Shown in pieces: positions 2,519 through 56,604 of a stretch of DNA of 64,000 nt. Positions within the stretch are counted from its first letter, which is position 1. Each line of letters opens with the position of its first letter. The stretch lies in contig OZ220672.1 of assembly GCA_965116315.1 (NCBI GenBank), positions 579,208-643,207 on the forward strand, read 5' to 3'. Both the position numbers and the translations under genes were made by a program. The notes under the pieces are model-generated. The model was given only the letters and a program-made list of their open reading frames with translations. It searched no databases and had not been told where the DNA came from. The stretch is from Dehalococcoidia bacterium. Its GTDB lineage: Bacteria > Chloroflexota > Dehalococcoidia > Lucifugimonadales > CAJWER01.

Positions 2519-3163
2519 CTACTTCAGGCTGGCGATTGGCCCCGGGCACTTGATCTGGGATAGCAGGGCCAGGCCGCGATTTGCCTCGCTCTCGAGGTCC
2601 TGGAGGACTGTGTTGCTCTGTACGGTGGCCGGCTCGACTGCCCTGTACTCCGCAACGTAGGCCTGCGCCGCCGCGAGCTGTCCCTCCCATTGGGGCAGCA
2701 GGGAGCAGATGTGCTCAGTCTCATCCCCGTCGATGACGCCGTCGGCCGTGCTGGCCTTCGTGCTGGACAGGAAGGCCCTGAGGTTTGACCAGTGCTCGGT
2801 GCGCTCGTTCCAGCGTGCGAGCCTGGCCTCCTCTTCAGGACTGTTCTCCAACCCAAGCGCGGACTTGATTCTCAGGTAGGTGTTGAGGCTGACGCTGTAT
2901 GTTCCCGGCGCGTCGGCCTGGAAGTCTTCGAGCTCGGCCCTGGCCGTGGTGTAGCCGTCGGTGTCGGGGTTGAGGATCAGCGGCGGCTCGCCCTCCGCCG
3001 AAATGAAGAATACCCCGGTGGCGGCCCAGTAGTTACTCTGAGGCGAGACTATGAACACCCAGACGATCGCGCCGATAGCGGTCGCGGCGACGATAGCCCA
3101 TTGCCTGGCAGTCAGGCCCCGTGGGTCACCGGACTGCACGCGCTCTTCCACACTCATCTTCAT
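2519..3163 (-). CDS. Hypothetical membrane-anchored protein
   Basis: ORF 2519..3196. A GGAGGGAAGGGAAG purine tract precedes the internal ATG at 3163 (MKMSVEE...). One hydrophobic helix (WAIVAATAIGAIVWVFIV). No recognisable domain. Confidence 0.45.
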   Translation of the reverse strand: MKMSVEERVQSGDPRGLTARQWAIVAATAIGAIVWVFIVSPQSNYWAATGVFFISAEGEPPLILNPDTDGYTTARAELEDFQADAPGTYSVSLNTYLRIKSALGLENSPEEEARLARWNERTEHWSNLRAFLSSTKASTADGVIDGDETEHICSLLPQWEGQLAAAQAYVAEYRAVEPATVQSNTVLQDLESEANRGLALLSQIKCPGPIASLK

Positions 3164-3420
3164 GGCCCTGCTTCCCTTCCCTCCGTACGCACGCATCCAG
3201 TGTCCCCAACCCGTTTAGCCCGCTTCAAGGCCTTCTACCCTTACCTTTTGCAACGTATGGGGCGTGCTGGGGTTGGCAGCCTGACGGCCCACAGGAGGGG
3301 ACGAGCAAGGGGTGCATGGGAGATGGCGCGTGCTGACTGGACGCAGTTCAGGGGCTATCGGACTCGCGGAAGAGAACCCGCGTCCAGTCGGCGGCTAGTG
3401 CGGGGCAGGCTCGCCTAGCT

Positions 3421-5337
3421 TCAACAGGGTTCAGCACCGGGTCCCACCGGCCTTATGCCCAGGCGGCTGAGGGTGGCCGGGTCGAAGGGATTCCCTCCAT
3501 CGCGCAGGGTCCTCAGCCAGGACGACCGGCTGGCGTGGTAGTTTTGCCGGCAGCTCTCCTTGAAGGAGGCGTTCACCCAGTCCAGGAATGCTTCGAACTC
3601 GGCTATCGCGTCGGCGTGCCGTCCCATGGTTGCGTAAACGAGCCCGCGGGCGTCCCTGGCCTCCCCGACGTTGGCCGCGACCGCTGCGTCGCAGTAGGGC
3701 AGGGCCTTCGCCGGCTTTCCGCTGACCCCCATCTGCCAGCACAGGGTCCTGTTGTAGGACGGGTCCTCCGGGCGAAGCTTGCGTGCGCGCTGCAAGTCGG
3801 CGACAGAAGCGTCGAGATCTCCAAGAGCCGAATGGATCAGCCCACGGTTGTAGTAGGCGCTGGGCGAATCGGGCGCCAGCTCGATGGCCCTTTCGAAGTC
3901 CTGCCTTGCCAGGTCGAGGTTGCCCGCGCCACCGCGCACCAGGTATGCGTTGCCCCTCGTCAGGTACGCCTGGGCAAGATCGGGCTCGATCCTTAGCGCG
4001 CGTTCCAGGTCGCCGAAGGCGCGATCCAGGTCTCCGGGGCCGTTTCTCTGCACGTACGCGCCGGCCCTGTTGACGTAGGCGGGGGCGTAGTCGACCCGAA
4101 GGGTCATGGACTTGGTGAGGTTGGCGATAGCGTGATCGAGGTCTTCGCCGCTGCCGCTCTCCATGTAGGCCACCGCCCGGTTCAGGTACGTCGCGGCGTC
4201 TTCGGGGTCGATCTCGGCTGCAGTAGTCAGGTCTGCCAGCGCCAGCTCCACGTCGCCGCCGGCCCCCCGGTCGAGATATGCGAGGGCCCGGCTGTTGTAC
4301 GTGTCGACCGACCTTGGTCGCACGGACAGCACCTGGGTGAAGAGCCCTATCGCCTCGTCCAGGTCCGTCGACTCCCCGCCCTGGTATGCCCGCCCCAGCC
4401 GAAAGCGTAGGCTCGCCAGCGTGTCGGGGTCCGTTGGAGGCTCGTTCATCGCGCGCAGCAGCACGAGCCTGGCCGCGTGGAAGGACTCCTGGTCCAGGTA
4501 GAGCTGGCCAAGCGTCAACAGCGCCGCGTATCGCACCTCCTCGGCTAGCCCGACGTTGATGGTGGCGGGCAGCTCCGAGGGCGACGTAGCCAGGTCTACG
4601 ACCTGCTGGTCGTGGGGCTCGGAGCGGGTCTGCGGCATCGTGAACGAGGCGACCACCCGCCCGCTGTCGTACTCGCCCCAGATGACGATCTTTGCGCCCG
4701 ACTGGAGTCCTGCCGCGACGGCCGCCTCCTCGGCGGCGATCTCGTCCGGCCACTCGGCCGTCCTCACGTCCGGCAGGCCCGCGGCCGCTATCTCCCGCTC
4801 TATCTGCTCCTTGAGGCGCCCGTGGACGTTGAAGCCGTGCTGTCCGCCCGTGTAATTGACGAAGGGCGCCATTACGATCAGGGACTCGCCCCCCTCGGCG
4901 GATGGGTAAGGGGCGCTTCTCAGCACCCTAAACGCCATCAAGCCTCCCAGGATCAAAACCAGCAGGGCGGCCGCCGCGGCCATGGGCCAGAGGTCTCTCC
5001 TGTGGAGCCACCGCTTCCGGCTCGAGGGCATTTCGGGCGTCTCAGGAGGACTTGCATCCAGCGGATCCGGCGGTACGGGTTCTGCCGGCGCATCGGTTGG
5101 GGGCTCTTCACTGGGAGGGAAACCGGCCGCCAGGAGGAATTCAGCCTTCTCCTCCGTGGTCAGGCGCAGAAGGTCCGCGCAGCGGGCCACGTCGTCGCTA
5201 TGCCGGGGCCGTGTGGTGACTCCGAGCTTCCAGCGGACGAGGGTGAGGCGGCTAATGCCGATGCGGCGGGCCAGCTCGGCGTCGCCGATGCCGGTCCGGG
5301 CCATGTATGCGGTCAGCAGCTCTGCGAAAGTCCCCAA
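3421..5337 (-). CDS. Membrane-anchored XRE-type HTH regulator with C-terminal TPR repeats
   Basis: N-terminal HTH (LARRIGISRLTLVRW), Pro-rich linker, one TM helix (LWPMAAAAALLVLILGGLMAF), then many TPR-like units (A.AY.NRG..Y). TTG start. Confidence 0.7.
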   Translation of the reverse strand: MGTFAELLTAYMARTGIGDAELARRIGISRLTLVRWKLGVTTRPRHSDDVARCADLLRLTTEEKAEFLLAAGFPPSEEPPTDAPAEPVPPDPLDASPPETPEMPSSRKRWLHRRDLWPMAAAAALLVLILGGLMAFRVLRSAPYPSAEGGESLIVMAPFVNYTGGQHGFNVHGRLKEQIEREIAAAGLPDVRTAEWPDEIAAEEAAVAAGLQSGAKIVIWGEYDSGRVVASFTMPQTRSEPHDQQVVDLATSPSELPATINVGLAEEVRYAALLTLGQLYLDQESFHAARLVLLRAMNEPPTDPDTLASLRFRLGRAYQGGESTDLDEAIGLFTQVLSVRPRSVDTYNSRALAYLDRGAGGDVELALADLTTAAEIDPEDAATYLNRAVAYMESGSGEDLDHAIANLTKSMTLRVDYAPAYVNRAGAYVQRNGPGDLDRAFGDLERALRIEPDLAQAYLTRGNAYLVRGGAGNLDLARQDFERAIELAPDSPSAYYNRGLIHSALGDLDASVADLQRARKLRPEDPSYNRTLCWQMGVSGKPAKALPYCDAAVAANVGEARDARGLVYATMGRHADAIAEFEAFLDWVNASFKESCRQNYHASRSSWLRTLRDGGNPFDPATLSRLGIRPVGPGAEPC

Positions 5338-12800: not shown

Positions 12801-12953
12801 GGTCTTTTCTCCCCAGTGGTTTGGCCAGGCGCTTACTGCAAGACTGGCGGACGGAGTATATCCTGTTTGCGTATAGGTTGGATTGGTCGCCAGTGGTCGG
12901 AGGGATGTCTCGTCGCCTGAAGGGGCCCTCGCGCGGCCTCGAAATCTACGGCG

Positions 12954-12984
12954 AGGGGAGGGCGGGTTTGAAACCCGCCCCTAC
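12954..12984. repeat. REP-like palindrome, family A (GGGCGGGTTTGAAACCCGCCCCTAC)
   Basis: Perfect arms GGGCGGGTTT/AAACCCGCCC in a divergent intergenic region. Other copies: 31261-31284, and one split by an IS at 17454-17470 / 19175-19195. Confidence 0.7.
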
Positions 12985-13011
12985 GACGACACATTTGTTC
13001 GGAGGTGAGGA

Positions 13012-13758
13012 ATGGGCTCGCATGAATTCTCATTGAAGGGGAGGGTCTGCCTGGTGACCGGGGGTTCCCGGACGCTTGGGGCATCCATCGCGCGGGCGCT
13101 GGCCGAGCGCGGGGCCGACGTTGCGGTCAACTACAACCGGTCTACGGACGCGGCAGGGGACCTGTGCGAAGAGCTGCGTGCTCTCGGCTCTAGGGCTGAG
13201 CCGGTCCAGGCAGACGTGGGGGACCCTGTCCAGGCGTCGCGGATGGTGGCCGAGGTGTGGGAGCGCTTCGGCAGGGTCGACGTGCTGGTCAACAATGCCG
13301 GTCCCTACGTCGACAAACCCTACCTGGAGCTGGACGTGGCCGACTTCGACCACATCATGGAGACGAACGTGCGCGCGACCTACGTGGTGACGAGAGAGGC
13401 GGGCGTGCGCATGAAAGACGTGGGCGGCGGATGCGTGGTCAACATAGCCGCCACGAGCGCTTTCGGGAATGTGCACAGCGTCTACGGCCTGGCGAAGGCG
13501 GGCGTGGTGCACCTCACGCGGCAGCTTGCCATCGAGCTTGCGCCGGAGGTCAGGGTGAACTGCCTGGCGCCGGCGCTGATTGCCGACAACGAGGGCATGG
13601 ACCCGGCGAAGGCAGCCGAGGTCGTGGAGGGGACGCCGCTGGGACGGCTAGTGACGAGGGCCGAGATCGCGGAGGCGCTCTGCCTGCTGTGCGGCCCGGC
13701 CTTCGGGAGTGTCACCGGGCAGACCGTAGTGATGGATGGGGGGCACTCGATGGCCTGA
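13012..13758 (+). CDS. SDR family oxidoreductase (FabG-like)
   Basis: LVTGGSRTLGASIA Rossmann motif, NNAG, and the Y..AK catalytic motif (YGLAKAG). GGAGGTGAGG precedes the ATG. Confidence 0.85.
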   Translation: MGSHEFSLKGRVCLVTGGSRTLGASIARALAERGADVAVNYNRSTDAAGDLCEELRALGSRAEPVQADVGDPVQASRMVAEVWERFGRVDVLVNNAGPYVDKPYLELDVADFDHIMETNVRATYVVTREAGVRMKDVGGGCVVNIAATSAFGNVHSVYGLAKAGVVHLTRQLAIELAPEVRVNCLAPALIADNEGMDPAKAAEVVEGTPLGRLVTRAEIAEALCLLCGPAFGSVTGQTVVMDGGHSMA

Positions 13759-31294: not shown

Positions 31295-32260
31295 TCAGGC
31301 ATGTCCTTCCGAATCGGGCCACATCTCCAGCTTTGACATGACCTCTATCAGCTGGGTCGTTCGCTCGCGGCGGACCTGCTCCGGGTCGCGGCCGCTCCAG
31401 TCGAAGAACCCTCGCCCGGACTTCAGCCCCAGGTCGCCCCGCTCTACCATCTCGACCACAGGCGTGAAGGGCCGGTCGGACTTGCTGAGGTGCGGCCACA
31501 GGCCTCGTGCCAGGGCGACGTGCAGGTCGAGGCCGCCGAGGTCACGCTGCTCCAGCGGGCCGGACACCATGAACCGCAGCCCGAAGCTGGTCTGCACGGC
31601 GAGGTCGATGTCCCCTGCGCTGGCGACCCCCTCCGCGACCAGGTTGGTGGCCTCCCTGACGAGGGCACCCTGCAGCCGGTTGGCCACGTAGCCGTTCACG
31701 TCCTTCTCGATGCGGATGGGGCGCTTTCCGCACGACCGCCATAGCTCTATCGTCCACTGCATCGTCTCGTCGCTGGTGCGGGGACCTCGTGATACCTCCA
31801 CCAGCGGTACGACTTGGGCCGGGAGGAAGAAGTGCGACCCAACGACGCGCTGCTGGTGCGCGAGATGGCCCGTCATGTCGCCCACGGACATGCCTGACGA
31901 ATTGGAGGCGATGATCGTATCCGGCGGTACGAGCCGCTCCAGCTCGGTGAAGAGGCGCCGTTTCAGCTCCATGTCCTCGGGGGATGCCTCGACCACGACC
32001 GCGGCCCCTTCGGCGGCCTCGGCAAGGTCGGTGGTGCCGCTGATTCGGCCCGCGATGCCGTCCGCCTCTGCCTGATCGAGTATCCCATGCTCGACTAGGC
32101 TCTCGAGTGTGTCGCGGACCCGGACGTCAGCCAGGTCCAGTGCCTCGTTCGACACGTCATACATGGTCACGGAGTCCGCACGCTGGGCCAGGACGTGGGC
32201 TATGCCGTGGCCCATCAGACCGGCCCCGATCACCGCCGCGGTGAGGCCTTGCTCACTCAA
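31295..32260 (-). CDS. 3-hydroxyacyl-CoA dehydrogenase family protein
   Basis: AAVIGAGLMGHGIAHVLA NAD-binding motif. ASNSS and the C-terminal 3HCDH-like domain. Confidence 0.85.
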   Translation of the reverse strand: MSEQGLTAAVIGAGLMGHGIAHVLAQRADSVTMYDVSNEALDLADVRVRDTLESLVEHGILDQAEADGIAGRISGTTDLAEAAEGAAVVVEASPEDMELKRRLFTELERLVPPDTIIASNSSGMSVGDMTGHLAHQQRVVGSHFFLPAQVVPLVEVSRGPRTSDETMQWTIELWRSCGKRPIRIEKDVNGYVANRLQGALVREATNLVAEGVASAGDIDLAVQTSFGLRFMVSGPLEQRDLGGLDLHVALARGLWPHLSKSDRPFTPVVEMVERGDLGLKSGRGFFDWSGRDPEQVRRERTTQLIEVMSKLEMWPDSEGHA

Positions 32261-32693
32261 CGGAGGCGGCCCTTTGCCAGACGATGCGGCCTGTCCTCAG
32301 CACCCCTGCCAGCACCATCGGCGGCGTGGTCAGTATGAGCGTGTCGCCGTCGAGGTCAACGAACCTGGTCTGCTCGGTGCCCACGCGGTTGGGGAAGAAC
32401 GCCGCCTCGATCTTGTGGATGACACGGTCGCCCAGGTATTCGTACTTGCCGCAGTAGGACACGTACGAGCCGGCCGCCGCGATCTTCTCCTCGTCGGTGC
32501 CCGCGAACATGTCCCCGCCGGCGAAGCTCGTCCGGCCCGCCGCCATCATCGACACCGACATGTAGCCGTCGTGGGTGTACATTATGTAGCCGGTCGCGTC
32601 TTCCCCGAGCGGGTAGAGCACGTTGTCGCCGGTGCGGCCCTCGTATGACACGAGCCGCCACGCCCCGATCAGCGGATTCGATTCCATAGCCAC
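32253..32693 (-). CDS. Lipocalin-like domain protein
   Basis: LIGAWRLVSYE...GYIMYTHDGYMSV pattern. Overlaps the downstream dehydrogenase start by 8 nt. Confidence 0.6.
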   Translation of the reverse strand: MAMESNPLIGAWRLVSYEGRTGDNVLYPLGEDATGYIMYTHDGYMSVSMMAAGRTSFAGGDMFAGTDEEKIAAAGSYVSYCGKYEYLGDRVIHKIEAAFFPNRVGTEQTRFVDLDGDTLILTTPPMVLAGVLRTGRIVWQRAASVE

Positions 32694-32814: not shown

Positions 32815-34860
32815 CTAGACTGCCAGCTGTCTCGCGAGAGCCTGCGGCTCGGTCACTGGCAGGTCGCAGGTGTAGTTGCGGCACACGTAGGCCGTCGCGC
32901 GGCCTTGGATCTTGCCCCTGTCCTTCAGCAGCGGCAGCTCGGCTGTCCCATGGTCGTCATCGTCCCCCAGCCCGACCAGCACCCTGTTGGGGAGGTAGTG
33001 CCTGAACGCCTCGGCCGCGAGACCGGGCGCGCCGTCGGTTTCGTCGCCGATGATCGCTATCTCCTTCACCGTTGCTAGGTAGAAGTCGAGCGCGGAGAGC
33101 CAGTGCCCCGCGCCCATCGGGTACTGCGACATGAGGGTTATGGTCGAGCGCATGGACGTGACGGCGCGCCTTTCCAGGTCGCCGTCGCCGGTGACGACCC
33201 CCAGCCTGAGCAGCACGTCGGCGGCCATTGCGCTGCCCGACGGTGTGGCGTTGTCCTGGATGTCGCGGGGCCTGACCACCAGCTCCTCGTGGTCGATGCC
33301 CGTATCGTAGAACTGGCCCGCGGGCTCGTCCCAGAACAGGTCGACCATGTCGCGGCCCAGGTCGATTGCCTCACGCAGCCATCGTCCGTCGAACGTCGCC
33401 TCGTGCAGCAGGAGCAGGCCGCTCACCAGGTAGGCGTAGTCCTCGAGGTACGCCTTCAGCTTCGCCTCGCCGCCCTTGTAGGTCCTGAGCAGCCTGTAGC
33501 CGTCCCGCAGGCTGTCGAGCAGGAATCCGGCGCACGTGGAGGCCGTCTCGACGTAGTCGCTCCGGCCCAGCACCATCCCGGCCTCCGCGAACGCCGCCAG
33601 CATCAGCCCATTCCACGACGTGAGGACCTTGTCGTCCAGCCCGGGGCGCACCCGCTCCTCGCGGGCCTCAAGCAGCTGGGCACGGCCTCTCGTGAGCAGG
33701 GCAGTGAGCTCATCCTCGCTCAACCCCTCCCTGGCCGCGAACTCCGCGGGAGGCGACTTGACGTTGAGGATGCTCATCCCCTCGAAGTTGCCGTCGACCG
33801 TCACGTCGAAGTACCGGTTGAATAGCTCGCCGTCGTCTTTGCCCAGCACCTCGGCGACCGCCTCGGGCCGCCAGACGAAGAACTTGCCCTCCTCGCCCTC
33901 GCTGTCCGCGTCCTGCGCCGAGTAGAAGCCGCCGGTCTCGTCCGTCATCTCGGCCAGCACGTAGTCGAGCGTCTCCTCGACGACGCGCCTGTACAGCGGC
34001 TTGCCGGTGACCTGGTAGGAGTGGAGGTAGAGGCGTGCCAGCAGGGCGTTGTCGTACAGCATCTTCTCGAAGTGGGGCACGAGCCAGAACGTGTCCACGG
34101 AGTAGCGGTGGAAGCCGCCCCGAAGCTGGTCGTATATGCCGCCCATCGCCATCCGGTCCAGCGTCGTCTCCACCATTTCCAGGGGCTCGGGATCGCCCGT
34201 CCTGAGGTGCTGACGGAGCAGGAACTCGTACGTCATGGGCTGCGGGAACTTGGGCTGTAGGCCGAAGCCGCCGTTCTTGTTGTCGAACTGCGCGGCCAGG
34301 TGTGCGAAGGCGCGGTTCATCACGTCGGTCGTGAGCGGCTCCACGCCGCGCACCCCGGCCGACGCCTGGCGCATGTGGGCCAGCAGCTGTTCCGTGGTCT
34401 GCACTATCTGCGACCGGTTGTTCCTGTATGCGGACGCGATGGCCTCGAGTACCCTCGGGAACGCCGGCAGGCCGCCCCGGTCCTCGGGCGGGAAGTACGT
34501 GCCGCCGTAGAAGGGCTTGCCGTCGGGCGTCATGAACACCGTCATCGGCCATCCGCCCTGGCCGGTCATCGCCTGGACCGCGCCCATGTATATCGAGTCG
34601 ACGTCGGGGCGCTCCTCCCGGTCGACCTTGATGTTCACGAAGTGCTCGTTCATGATCGCGGCGATGCCCTCGTTCTCGAAGGACTCGCGCTCCATCACGT
34701 GGCACCAGTGGCATGCCGAGTACCCGACGCTCAGCATCACCGGCCTGTCCTCCGCCCTGGCGCGAGTGAAGGCCTCGTCGCCCCACGGGTACCAGTCCAC
34801 CGGGTTGTGGGCGTGCTGTAGCAGGTAGGGGCTCGTCTCTTTCGCAAGCCGGTTCGTCAT
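32815..34860 (-). CDS. Thioredoxin-domain protein, YyaL/SPATA20-like (DUF255 + six-hairpin domain)
   Basis: [29 protein letters not shown]...[19 protein letters not shown] signature. 681 aa. Confidence 0.9.
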
Positions 34861-36371
34861 GCCATCATCCTCTCCGCGAACTCCGCCCAGTCCAGCTCCA
34901 GTGTAGTGACCTCCATCGTCTTGATGTCGGCCACGCGAATGGCGTGGTTGTTCGTGTCGGCTACATACACCAAGCCGTTCGCTAGGCTGACCCCGCAGGG
35001 CTCGTGGAAGTCGGCTATCACCGCCGGGCCGTCCCTGTGGCCCGCCTCGCCGCTTCCCAGCAGCCGCATGGACTCGCGCTGCAGGGGATCGATCTTCTTC
35101 ACCTTATTGTTGTAGGTGTCCGCTATGTAGAGCGCGCCGTCCTGGTACTCGATGCCCTGTACGTGCTGCAGCCTCACGTCGTCGCCGAACCCGTCACGGT
35201 CGCCGAAGGTGAACAGGTCCTCGCCGATAATCGTGCCGACGCGCCCTGCGGGGTCGAAGTCCGACGTCCTCACGGCGCTCGTCTCGCTGTCGGCGAAGTA
35301 GAGCCTCACCCCGTCGGTTGTGACGCCGTTCGGCTGGGCAAGCTGGGCGGACCCGTGCTGCCCGTCGACGATGCCCTCGCGCCCGCTGCCGGAGTGAGGC
35401 TGGACCGTGCCTGATGCGAGGTCCATCCGCCACAGCTGGTGGAATCCTGCCATGGCTATGTACAGGATGCCGTCGCGCAACTCTAGGTCCCACGGCGAGT
35501 TCAGGTCGGTCTCCGGGCCGGCGCCGCCTCGATGGAACATCATGGCCTGGCGGCCTGTGCCAGCTATGGTTTTTGCGTTGTGGTTAGCTAGATCCACCAT
35601 ACGAATGGCGTGATTCTTCGCGTCCGCCACGTACAGCGTGTCGCCGTCGAGCGCCATGCCCTGGGGGTCGTCGAAACGCGCCTCCTCGAACGTGCCGTCC
35701 GCGAGCCCGGCGTCCGGCCCGCCCACGATTGCGGTCACCCGTCCGCCCAGGGTCGCGACCACGATCCTGTTGTGGTTCGAGTCCGCGATGAAGAGCCGGT
35801 CGCTCTCCGCGTCGGCGAGGACCTTGCCGGGGAACGAGAGGGGCCGAGCGGACTCCTTCTCCCGCTCCGTGACGAAGTGGATGTCGCGCCGGTCGATTGC
35901 TCCCTCAGCGTCGAACTCGGCGATCATCTCGCCGATGAGCCGGTCGAACGTGTCGTAGCGGATCTCACCCTCGTGCTTGCCTATGACCTTGCCGGCGGGG
36001 TCGACGAACATCAGCGTCGGCCACGCCCGCACGGCGTACTGTCGCCATACCTCAAACCCGGCGTCGTTGACCACGGGATGCTCGATCTCGTACCTGAGGA
36101 TCGCCTGCCGGACGTTCTGCGTGGCCTTCTCAGCGTCGAACTTTGCCGAATGTACGCCCACCACGGCCAGCTCGCTGCTGTACTTCTCTTCCAGTTTCCG
36201 CAACTGCGGAAATACGTGCATGCAGTTGACTCAGCAGTACGTCCAGAAGTCCAGTATCACCAGCTTGCCGCGGAGCTCCGCCAGCGTCACCGGCCGCTCG
36301 CTGTTGAGCCAGTCGAGTCCTGCCGGGAACTCTGGCGCGTTCACTTTCCCTGAATACGACCTCGTACCCAC
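34857..36371 (-). CDS. Thioredoxin-fold + NHL-repeat protein (NHLRC2-like), candidate selenoprotein with in-frame TGA at 36233..36231
   Basis: Track ORF 34857..36221. The frame stays open upstream through one TGA to GTG 36371 (GAGGAGG upstream). The extension gives ...[25 protein letters not shown], the redox motif of the family, followed by NHL repeats. Confidence 0.75.
36195..36212 (-). promoter_or_regulatory. Candidate bacterial SECIS hairpin
   Basis: mRNA UUUCCGC-AGUU-GCGGAAA: a perfect 7-bp stem with a 4-nt GU-containing loop, starting 18 nt after the in-frame UGA. Confidence 0.4.
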
Positions 36372-36426
36372 CCGCACACCTCCTCGTTAGTGCTCAACGA
36401 CTACCCTACACGAAGTCCACCGCCTT

Positions 36427-36662: not shown

Positions 36663-37940
36663 CTAGGTGACCCGGATGGGGTGCGGCGCCGGGGCGTTGA
36701 AGAGGTAGCCTTTTTCGTTGAACGGCACGCTGTCCGGCTGGGTGTTGCCGGCTGCGTCCGTCGCCCTCGTCATGACGACGTGCTCTCCCGGCCGGGCATC
36801 CCATGTGAACTCGAAGCGCGCCCACGAGTACTGCACCTGCGGCTCGAGCACCGTCGAGTCAGACCAGGTCTGCCCGGAGTCCGCGGACCACACCACGTCC
36901 GTGATGGGGCCGTCGGGCGAATGGGCGTAGCCTCGTATTCGGTGCGAGCCTGCGGGAAGCTCGGCGGGCCAGGGTAGGGCGAGTGCGCTCTTGATCACCT
37001 GGGACGTGGCCACCTTGCCGGGGGCGTCGCCCTCAGGCGGGTAGGCGTCGCCTATGAGCACGTATGACGTGGTGTTGTTGCGCGTCCAGAGGTGCTCGGA
37101 CGTTACGACTATGCGGCTCAGCCACTTGATGCTCGAGCTGCCCACCCATCCCGGGGCCAGCGCCCTGAGGGGGTAGCCGTGGTCTTTGGGCAGGTCGTCG
37201 CCGTTCAGCCCGTATGCCAGCAGCGTGTCCGGGTGCATCGCCTTCTCGATCGGCATGACACGCCGGAAGCCCTCCTCGGGCGACTCCGTGTCCAGGCCTA
37301 TCAGGAGCACGCCGACCGCATCCCCGGACACACCGGCGAGCTCAAGGACGTCCCTGAGCGGGACGCCCGTCCACTCGCCGTTGCTGATGCCGCCCGTCTT
37401 CCACTGGTCGCCCTTCGCCGTCCTGCCGTTCACCAGGTCGAACATGGCGCGGTGGTTGCCGCCGCACTCCAGGTACGAAACGAGGGTGCGGCTCGGCATC
37501 TTCCGTATCTCGTCGTAGGAGAGCTCCAGTGGGCGCGACGCCGCATCACCCTCGACCGACAGCCGCCATTCGGTCGCGTCCACGTCGACGCTGGCGGAGT
37601 TGTTGCGGACGAAGAACAGCCGGTTGGGAGTTAACAGGCCCTGCATGTTTTCCAGGCGCGTCTCCAGGTTCTTGCCGCTGTGCACGATGAAGGGCTCGGG
37701 GTCTTTGAACCATTGAGATTGTTCTGCCGTAGCTGTCGATCCGCCTGACTGGGATGACGACGTGGCCGCTTCGTCGGGCGCTCCGAGGTCCGAACAGGCC
37801 GCCAGCACCGCCGCCGCCCCACCGACCGACAGGAGCTGAAGGAACCTGCGCCGGTCCATGCCCCTCTCGCGCACGAGCTGCCAAAGTCTCCCCGCTTCTG
37901 CGAAATCAGACATCTTCGCCCAGGAGTCCCCCTCTCTCAT
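36663..37940 (-). CDS. Sulfite-oxidase-family molybdopterin oxidoreductase with Tat signal
   Basis: MDRRRFLQLLSVGGAAAVLAACS twin-arginine signal; the probable true start is ATG 37859. YLECGGNHR Mo-ligand Cys region and a C-terminal Mo-co dimerisation-like domain. Confidence 0.85.
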   Translation of the reverse strand: MREGDSWAKMSDFAEAGRLWQLVRERGMDRRRFLQLLSVGGAAAVLAACSDLGAPDEAATSSSQSGGSTATAEQSQWFKDPEPFIVHSGKNLETRLENMQGLLTPNRLFFVRNNSASVDVDATEWRLSVEGDAASRPLELSYDEIRKMPSRTLVSYLECGGNHRAMFDLVNGRTAKGDQWKTGGISNGEWTGVPLRDVLELAGVSGDAVGVLLIGLDTESPEEGFRRVMPIEKAMHPDTLLAYGLNGDDLPKDHGYPLRALAPGWVGSSSIKWLSRIVVTSEHLWTRNNTTSYVLIGDAYPPEGDAPGKVATSQVIKSALALPWPAELPAGSHRIRGYAHSPDGPITDVVWSADSGQTWSDSTVLEPQVQYSWARFEFTWDARPGEHVVMTRATDAAGNTQPDSVPFNEKGYLFNAPAPHPIRVT

Positions 37941-55842: not shown

Positions 55843-56604
55843 TCAGGCGCCGGCGGCCGCGGCGTTGCGGACCAGGCGCACGAAGACGTCCGGCTTCAGG
55901 CTTGCGCCGCCTACGAGTGCGCCGTCGACTTCGGGCTCGTTGACCATCTCGGCTACGTTCTCGTCGGTGACGCTGCCGCCATACAGGAGCGGCACGCCCG
56001 CGCCGGCTGCCCCAAACTGCCGCGACAGGAGGGACCTGACGTGGGCCATCATGGCCTGGGCGTCTGCGGCGGTCGCGGCCCTGCCCGTACCTATGGCCCA
56101 GACCGGCTCGTAGGCCACCAGCAGCCCGTCGGCCGACGAGACTCCATCAAGAGCCGCGGAGAGCTGATTTCCGACCACGACCTCGGCGTCGCCCGCTTCG
56201 CGCGCCTCCAGCCGCTCTCCGACGCATACGATGGGCTTCAGACCCGCCTCCAGCGCCGCGCCGACCTTTCGCCTGACGGCCTCATCGGTCTCGCCGAAGT
56301 GCTCGCGCCTCTCCGAATGGCCGAGGATGACGTACTCGCACAGTTCCGCCACCATCTGGGCCGATACCTCGCCGGTGAAGGCGCCGCTCGCCTCGTGGTG
56401 CATGTCCTGCGCCCCGACTCCTATGCCTGAGCCTTCGAGGAGGCGGCCGACGGCCTGGATCGATGTGAAGGGCGGGCATACGGCAACCTGGACGCCGGAG
56501 ATTCCGGCCAGGCCGTTCCTGATTGCCGATGCGAGGCTGTGAGCCTCGTCGGCAGTGGCGTTCATCTTCCAGTTGCCGACGATAGTCGTGACGGCTCGGC
56601 CCAT
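55843..56604 (-). CDS. tpiA: Triosephosphate isomerase
   Basis: IVGNWKMN, ILGHSERR, AYEPVWAIGTG and YGGSV. Confidence 0.95.
   Translation of the reverse strand: MGRAVTTIVGNWKMNATADEAHSLASAIRNGLAGISGVQVAVCPPFTSIQAVGRLLEGSGIGVGAQDMHHEASGAFTGEVSAQMVAELCEYVILGHSERREHFGETDEAVRRKVGAALEAGLKPIVCVGERLEAREAGDAEVVVGNQLSAALDGVSSADGLLVAYEPVWAIGTGRAATAADAQAMMAHVRSLLSRQFGAAGAGVPLLYGGSVTDENVAEMVNEPEVDGALVGGASLKPDVFVRLVRNAAAAGA

Follow-up and report, generated by a model that had tools for sequence, protein, structure and literature searches.

A predicted selenocysteine form of the thioredoxin–NHL protein in Dehalococcoidia and other bacteria

A reading frame that is interrupted by a single TGA, at the codon where its relatives encode the first cysteine of a CxxC pair, raises the question of whether that TGA is a stop or is read as an amino acid. 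The frame considered here lies on the minus strand of a stretch of 64,000 nt from a Dehalococcoidia bacterium (GenBank assembly GCA_965116315.1, contig OZ220672.1, positions 579,208 to 643,207); we refer to this whole stretch as the window, and coordinates are those of the window unless another sequence is named. The product is predicted to consist of a thioredoxin-like (Trx) domain followed by an NHL-repeat beta-propeller, and the original prediction held that the TGA is a selenocysteine (Sec) codon and that open reading frame (ORF) callers truncate the gene. From a comparison of homologous loci we consider it very probable that the UGA at 36233..36231 is decoded as Sec, giving an active site C-U-V-N-C in which Sec stands for the N-terminal Cys of the CxxC pair.

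The interrupted gene and its homologues

On direct reading and translation, the minus-strand frame from 36371 to 34857 is interrupted once, by the TGA (36233..36231) of DFWTYC-TGA-VNCMH. The ORF that was called (34857..36221) begins at an ATG that is the fourth codon past this TGA, and 46 open codons lie between the TGA and a GTG at 36369..36371. This GTG is the probable true start of the full-length gene (the relatives have an equivalent start, mostly ATG, 45–47 codons before the TGA), and a Shine-Dalgarno-like GAGGAGG (36379..36385, minus strand) is located 7 nt 5′ of it; an alternative in-frame GTG at 36377 is an unlikely start, being just 1 nt from the ribosome-binding site. Read through, the predicted selenoprotein gene (34857..36371) encodes 504 residues and ends at a TGA stop of its own (34859..34857). 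Re-reading the sequence confirmed the positions originally given for the TGA, the ORF start, the open frame, the GTG with its GAGGAGG and a hairpin to which we return below.

The read-through protein has Pfam matches to Thioredoxin_8, AhpC-TSA and NHL, the last with an E-value of 1e-23. Its Trx-like domain, of the TlpA/DipZ-like type, covers residues ~13–136 (35964..36335, minus strand), as judged from Pfam stretches at 13–129 and 35–129 and from alignment to the Trx domains of SOQ1, NHLRC2 and DipZ. The NHL-repeat beta-propeller follows at residues ~175–494 (34890..35849, minus strand), placed by sequence alignment to the NHL parts of SOQ1 and NHLRC2; the protein ends ~10 residues past the propeller, with no C-terminal domain (CTD) after it. 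Neither a signal peptide nor a membrane anchor is present in the window copy, and because it lacks the former the protein is probably cytoplasmic.

A protein search gave a bimodal result. The closest matches (66–94% identity) are 440–454 residues long with a query coverage of just 88–90%, a short, truncated profile found in 46 of the best 120 protein matches, and more distant matches (58–65% identity) cover 97–99% of the query. In the alignment all eight short proteins examined start at a Met just past the CxxC, and all of the full-length ones read DFWTYCCINCMH. For two of the short proteins the coding DNA, located on contigs of 3.03 and 3.00 Mb, carries the same in-frame TGA and a conserved N-terminal segment upstream of it, with many synonymous differences. 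The motif that the original prediction gave for the Cys-type relatives was right, since human NHLRC2 (PDB 6GC1) has DFFTYCCINCIH and Arabidopsis SOQ1 (7DJJ) has DFWTYCCINCMH, aligned column for column with the window protein.

The column occupied by the TGA was followed through a homologue scan of one genome per GTDB species, which yielded 80 loci; the critical position is TGA in 41 of them and TGC or TGT in the other 39. Together with loci L001 and L002 and the window itself, the former make up 44 Sec-type sequences, that is, the window and 43 genomic loci. The codon is TGA in 44 of the 44 Sec-type sequences and TGC or TGT in 39 of the 39 Cys-type loci, and SOQ1 and NHLRC2 have Cys there, which places the TGA at the first Cys of the CxxC pair, as had been proposed. 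The Sec-type hosts belong mostly to Dehalococcoidia, with others in Chloroflexia, Thermomicrobia, unclassified Chloroflexota, Rokubacteria, Dormibacterota and one unclassified bacterium; a Sec-type locus is also carried by Candidatus Fervidibacter sacchari PD1 (Armatimonadota), which is cultured. The Cys-type loci are found in Acidobacteriota, Planctomycetota, Latescibacterota, Anaerolineae and others. One split of a neighbour-joining tree parts all Sec-type from all Cys-type sequences, and the nearest Sec-type relative of the window is L003, with 89% identity, a relationship that places the window in Dehalococcoidia. We note that three Dehalococcoidia loci (L008, L023 and L029, including an ALOHA ocean metagenome-assembled genome, MAG) read UINCAH, with Ala for Met after the CxxC, and ORF callers must therefore start further downstream in these genes or miss them.

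Metagenomes were scanned with a pattern made of the coding context and the hairpin, with the critical codon left as TGN, and the codon was TGA in 120 of 120 among the matches listed. Two further loci have Cys at the Sec position: L085 (P0010, 383..1876) has TGC there together with a hairpin that is still perfect and the same DUF255 neighbour downstream as the window gene (see below), and in L086 (P0011, 528..2054) the hairpin has decayed. The first looks like a very recent change from Sec to Cys, and the two together have the appearance of snapshots of a Sec-to-Cys reversion.

Is the segment upstream of the TGA translated? It aligns with residues of SOQ1 and NHLRC2, and it would supply the start of the thioredoxin fold (36234..36371, minus strand); the homologues possess it, as the original prediction required. 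In the Sec-type loci, the ratio of non-synonymous to synonymous substitution rates (dN/dS) over the 36 codons that precede the TGA is 0.17, with dS 1.41, compared with 0.19 for the upstream segment in the Cys-type loci and 0.23 for the downstream codons +14..+50 in the Sec-type loci; purifying selection on these codons thus matches that on the remainder of the gene. The frame is open to a start codon ~45–47 codons upstream of the TGA in every Sec-type locus. In the window, the 51-codon upstream extension has a third-codon-position G+C content (GC3) of 0.85, within the 0.74–0.93 of the window's genes, and the other, non-genic TGA-flanked extensions tested have 0.46–0.78. Where a database protein starts at MHVFPQL, its annotation is truncated, for the DNA encodes the conserved upstream segment in frame; the truncation by ORF callers is thus borne out.

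These data bear on the possibility of a pseudogene or of a sequencing or assembly error, either of which would need one base change (TGC or TGT to TGA). Scattered stops or frameshifts in the orthologues were looked for, and the Sec-type orthologues share instead the same single TGA and no other interruption, with purifying selection on both sides of the codon. The same TGA is, moreover, present in 43 independent genome loci and at least 120 metagenome contigs from many studies and sequencing platforms. Conservation and selection have effectively refuted this explanation already, and we give it next to no credence.

A genuine stop is the other simple explanation: a 46-residue peptide would be made and translation would re-initiate at the AUG three codons later, to give a 454-residue protein from which both the first redox Cys and the first beta-strand would be missing; the role of the hairpin would then be in translational coupling or mRNA stability. 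An ATG does lie closely 3′ of the TGA in the window and in most relatives, and all database gene calls seen, including RefSeq WP_326522700.1, have the truncated form. However, such a stop would hit the catalytic Cys column exactly in 44 lineages, destroying the CxxC, and yet the 36 codons before it are under the constraint just described (dN/dS 0.17). There is no ATG, GTG or TTG at the position of the ORF-caller start in five Sec-type loci (the three with UINCAH, L052 with V and L050 with H), which argues against a split gene with re-initiation, and L085 exchanges TGA for TGC and not for the codon of any other residue. We therefore regard termination at this codon as very unlikely.

The hairpin downstream of the TGA

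Recoding of UGA as Sec in bacteria would call for a selenocysteine insertion sequence (SECIS) within the coding region, and a candidate is present. The mRNA can form a perfect hairpin, UUUCCGC-AGUU-GCGGAAA, at 36212..36195 (minus strand; 5′ arm 36212..36206, loop AGUU 36205..36202, 3′ arm 36201..36195), beginning 18 nt past the UGA. When it is compared with published bacterial SECIS criteria (PMC13188914), all four features are found: a loop of 4 nt in which the second base is G and the third U, a stem of 7 bp, a spacing of 25 nt from the UGA to the start of the loop, and a minimum free energy (MFE) of −9.3 kcal/mol. The original description of the hairpin as compatible with a bacterial SECIS element thus holds, and its fit is to the SECIS model rather than to a start-site structure, which is a further point against a genuine stop. 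By a rough estimate, the chance of a perfect 7-bp hairpin somewhere in the permitted interval is ~1%.

The evidence for this structure is strengthened by its conservation. In the alignment of the 44 Sec-type sequences the 7-bp helix is paired in 98.4% of cells, and compensatory changes are seen at four of the seven pairs: UA to CG in 10 sequences, UA to GC or CG in four, GC to CG or UA in two and CG to GU in one. Neither the observed covariation score nor the percentage paired was reached in any of 500 column shuffles, pairing falls to 32–71% of cells when the 3′ arm is slid by 1–3 columns as a control, and RNAalifold predicts the same helix independently. The hairpin of F. sacchari (L075), CUGCCGC-AGUU-GCGGCAG, is among the compensated ones; a bulged U is present in one relative only, L050. 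The MFE is −7.5 kcal/mol or lower in 42 of the 44 sequences.

The hairpin is found in none of the 39 Cys-type loci, and its imprint on codon usage is restricted in the same manner. Third-codon-position entropies for the hairpin codons +7..+12 are 0.62, 0.31, 0.16, 0, 0.27 and 0.81 in the Sec forms, and 1.67, 1.77, 1.38, 1.59, 1.10 and 1.55 for the same codons in the Cys forms, so that the third positions are frozen in the Sec forms only. The peptide encoded by these codons differs too, being FPQLRK in the Sec forms and IPDLKK in the Cys forms.

The single-sequence fold of the 71-nt region is no better than its shuffles (z = 0.15), and the case therefore rests on the comparison, with 43 other loci and with the metagenome contigs, and not on the single sequence. 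A number of results weigh against a Sec codon with a SECIS element. The loop of L060 is AUUU, lacking the consensus G, and two Sec-type sequences have weak hairpins. No match at Rfam gathering level was found in the window, and a permissive scan of 36100–36300 (E≤10) gave chance-level hits to unrelated families only; this is weak evidence, and the Rfam miss is uninformative for bacterial SECIS elements since no match does not exclude one. Finally, the 64-kb window and ~1.4 Mb of related loci were searched by tblastn with E. coli SelA, SelB and SelD and by ARAGORN for tRNA-Sec; neither a homologue of selA, selB or selD nor a tRNA-Sec was found, an absence that would also suit a genuine stop and that says little, with ~2% of a genome covered. 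A lone SelB-like match (L160) was rejected as EF-Tu; it is next to nusG and rplA.

Decoding of the UGA and the neighbouring genes

Reassignment of the genetic code as a whole can be dismissed. As the original prediction had noted, TGA is an ordinary stop here: it terminates 16 of the 47 high-GC3 ORFs in the window, among them the Trx-NHL gene itself at 34859..34857. When every gene of the window was extended across its flanking TGA, no other extension had coding-like GC3, the exception at 55845 being a pair of ordinary neighbouring genes that share a frame.

Local recoding to a residue other than Sec is a subtler alternative, in which Cys would be inserted by a tRNA-Sec-like suppressor, or Trp or Cys by hairpin-stimulated near-cognate read-through. 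The comparative evidence, as we read it, demonstrates recoding and a cis element and not the identity of the inserted residue, and the part of the window's genome that was searched, ~2% of a genome, shows no Sec machinery. Set against this, Sec is classically recognized by UGA and Cys replacing each other at the redox CxxC of a thioredoxin fold. The element also fits the SelB-type SECIS consensus in both loop sequence and spacing (criteria of PMC13188914), and at least one carrier genome is a documented heavy user of Sec: L015 is a contig of the Dehalococcoidia MAG UBA1141, which BSepDB counts among the organisms with the Sec pathway and which, having 49 selenoprotein genes, ranks there among the first ten of >16,000 species (PMC13326102). 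Within the same class, selC, genes for Sec synthesis and an elongation factor specific for Sec are present in the cultured Dehalogenimonas alkenigignens (PMC4918011). These two organisms provide good indirect support for Sec use in the carriers, and we consider insertion of another residue quite improbable.

Decoding as Sec would thus proceed as follows. The bacterial SECIS hairpin inside the coding sequence, with its 7-bp stem and its AGUU loop 25 nt past the UGA, would direct recoding by tethering SelB-GTP-Sec-tRNA(Sec) to the ribosome with the UGA in the A site, a role for SelB and tRNA-Sec proposed by analogy with known systems; the terminal UGA of the gene, which has no such hairpin, would terminate normally. 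In the protein, the nucleophilic attack would come from Sec and be resolved by Cys50, in a thiol-disulfide or sulfoxide reductase chemistry like that reported for SOQ1, and the NHL propeller may act as a platform for binding the substrate. Mechanistically there is nothing new in this: both the Sec/Cys pair and the SECIS element are of the standard bacterial kind.

A candidate partner is encoded directly downstream. The DUF255/Thioredox_DsbH (YyaL/SPATA20-like) gene at 32815..34860 (minus strand; Pfam PF03190, E=1.7e-79) has an ATG that overlaps the TGA stop of the Trx-NHL gene (ATGA), which suggests translational coupling of the two. A DUF255 gene lies within the 3-kb downstream flank of 13 of the 43 Sec-type loci, adjacent in most, and of none of the 39 Cys-type loci; of 122 metagenome loci, 16 have one in the flank. 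It comes immediately after the Sec-type Trx-NHL gene in the window, L001, L002, L003, L004, L007, L009, L020, L044, L060, L070 and L073, and also follows the Cys-carrying gene of L085. The DUF255 protein may be a functional partner of the CTD-less form and, through its own thioredoxin domain, could serve as a redox partner that replaces the missing CTD.

Other neighbours are shared less widely. Just downstream of the DUF255 gene is a Lipocalin_5 gene (32253..32693, minus strand; PF13924, E=4e-32), also present in L001 (13472..13906) and L003. The known substrate of plant SOQ1 is the lipocalin LCNP, and the linkage may be coincidental, as it is seen in the closest relatives only and the Pfam family differs from the classical lipocalins. 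Directly upstream of the Trx-NHL gene, on the same strand, is a gene for a sulfite-oxidase-family molybdoenzyme (36663..37940; Oxidored_molyb and Mo-co_dimer), which is common only to L001 and, in part, L003 and is not a conserved association.

Elsewhere in the window, the sole tRNA call by ARAGORN is a 90-nt ‘tRNA-Ala (cgc)’ at 12898..12987 on the plus strand. This stretch ends in a G+C-rich hairpin, GGGCGGG-TTTGAAA-CCCGCCC, ~25 nt 5′ of a short-chain dehydrogenase gene (13012..13758). An unusual tRNA was considered and rejected, there being no Rfam tRNA match at E≤1; the call is probably false and the structure possibly that of a leader or a terminator.

Novelty and relation to known systems

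The annotation of the family in the databases hides the feature of interest. The RefSeq copy of the F. sacchari gene, for example, is a truncated ‘thioredoxin-like domain-containing protein’ of 442 aa (WP_326522700.1), and its locus (L075; NZ_CP130454.1, ~2890..4460) encodes a hydrophobic N-terminal segment behind a good ribosome-binding site, which suggests that this copy is exported or membrane-anchored. In essentially every database entry seen, the gene is shortened by ~50 residues and has lost its active site, and the signature of TGA plus hairpin would allow the truncated records to be corrected. No NCBIfam model reaches its cutoff on the protein, the best selenoprotein model being WAxxUGC_long (NF041054), with 23 bits against a cutoff of 300.

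The original prediction knew of no Sec form of this family, and the literature searched is consistent with that statement, although it does not prove it. Table 1 of PMC13188914, a 2026 inventory that covers 119 families of prokaryotic selenoproteins, lists none described with NHL. The word NHL is used neither in that paper nor in a 2022 review (PMC9312934), the BSepDB paper (PMC13326102) or the Sargasso and GOS papers, and full-text searches for selenoprotein with NHL repeat, or for NHLRC2 with selenocysteine, returned nothing relevant. Catalogues based on tblastn, such as BSepDB, may already contain the Trx part under a generic family name, which is possible because PF00578 and PF08534 both match the Trx domain. 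With slightly less than even confidence, then, we propose that these genes represent an uncatalogued selenoprotein family, the Sec form of the SOQ1/NHLRC2 type of Trx-NHL protein, widely distributed in Dehalococcoidia, sporadic in other Chloroflexota, Rokubacteria, Dormibacterota and Armatimonadota, CTD-less, and frequently coupled to a DUF255/SPATA20-like protein.

The family is a clean and widespread predicted selenoprotein that is systematically mis-annotated, and it adds to the picture of Dehalococcoidia as being among the bacterial lineages richest in selenoproteins. Its wider interest lies in the chemistry of NHLRC2 and SOQ1, since the replacement of a Cys by Sec in nature points strongly to a nucleophile of redox catalysis; if the Sec reading is correct, nature would have marked the first Cys of the CxxC in CCINC as the catalytic nucleophile of the NHLRC2/SOQ1 family. 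A Sec orthologue that has no CTD argues further that the Trx CxxC itself performs demanding redox chemistry, and the Trx-NHL and DUF255 proteins together would make up a cytoplasmic system for protein repair, or a reductase system, that depends on selenium. Because one host, F. sacchari, is cultured, the Sec-bearing orthologue offers a tractable system.

Comparison with known systems places the element and the protein as follows. With the bacterial SECIS consensus (the bSECISearch model, of the E. coli fdhF type) the window hairpin shares a small apical loop with G then U, an upper stem of 7 bp, a spacing of 25 nt, an MFE below −7.5 kcal/mol and a location within the coding region; its sequence, however, is unrelated to the E. 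coli elements, and the element is a minimal, perfect hairpin that lacks a conserved lower stem and has no Rfam match. The catalogued thioredoxin-fold families with UxxC likewise have this motif in a TlpA/redoxin-type fold, a SECIS directly downstream in the ORF and widespread Cys homologues. Those nearest in kind are the Prx-like (PF00578), thiol-disulfide isomerase-like (cd02966) and Redoxin (PF08534) families, with WP_010940744.1, MGB1650493.1 and HEU0032618.1 as representatives of the generic families (PMC13188914); none is described with an NHL propeller, and it is by these descriptions that the present family is set apart. The C-terminal Trx-like domain of Mycobacterium tuberculosis DipZ (PDB 2HYX) aligns with E=4e-23 and has its CxxC in register (W-Y-S-C-I-N-C), but DipZ belongs to the DsbD family, is linked to the membrane and has Cys, with neither an NHL propeller nor Sec.

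The closest PDB matches are the lumenal region of SOQ1 (7DJJ, E=6e-124, residues 11–494) and NHLRC2 (6GC1, E=1e-107, residues 9–491), and the NHL region alone (175–494) matches SOQ1 7DJM (E=4e-73) and NHLRC2 6G7W (E=1e-61). NHLRC2 is mutated in the fatal childhood disease FINCA. Its biochemical function is still undetermined. SOQ1, which was proposed only of late to act as a methionine sulfoxide reductase, has been reported to have a redox-active and essential pair, C431 and C434 (midpoint potential, Em, −274 mV), that passes electrons to a Cys pair in the CTD, essential as well, and its lumenal domains show methionine sulfoxide reductase activity (bioRxiv 10.1101/2024.11.01.621559). Both proteins share with the window protein the core of Trx-like and NHL domains and the active-site context DF(W/F)TYC-C-INC-(M/I)H, with CCINC in register with C-U-V-N-C. 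The window protein differs from them in having the predicted Sec at the middle Cys of CCINC, which is the first Cys of the CxxC, and in being a bacterial form without signal peptide or membrane anchor, and Sec forms are often paired with a DUF255 gene. The long Cys-type bacterial forms run ~170 residues further in the alignment and, like SOQ1 and NHLRC2, have a domain with YYCE...C; the window protein and the other Sec forms end after the propeller, without this CTD and its Cys pair. On this architecture the window protein is a CTD-less relative of SOQ1 and NHLRC2 rather than a full architectural member of their group.

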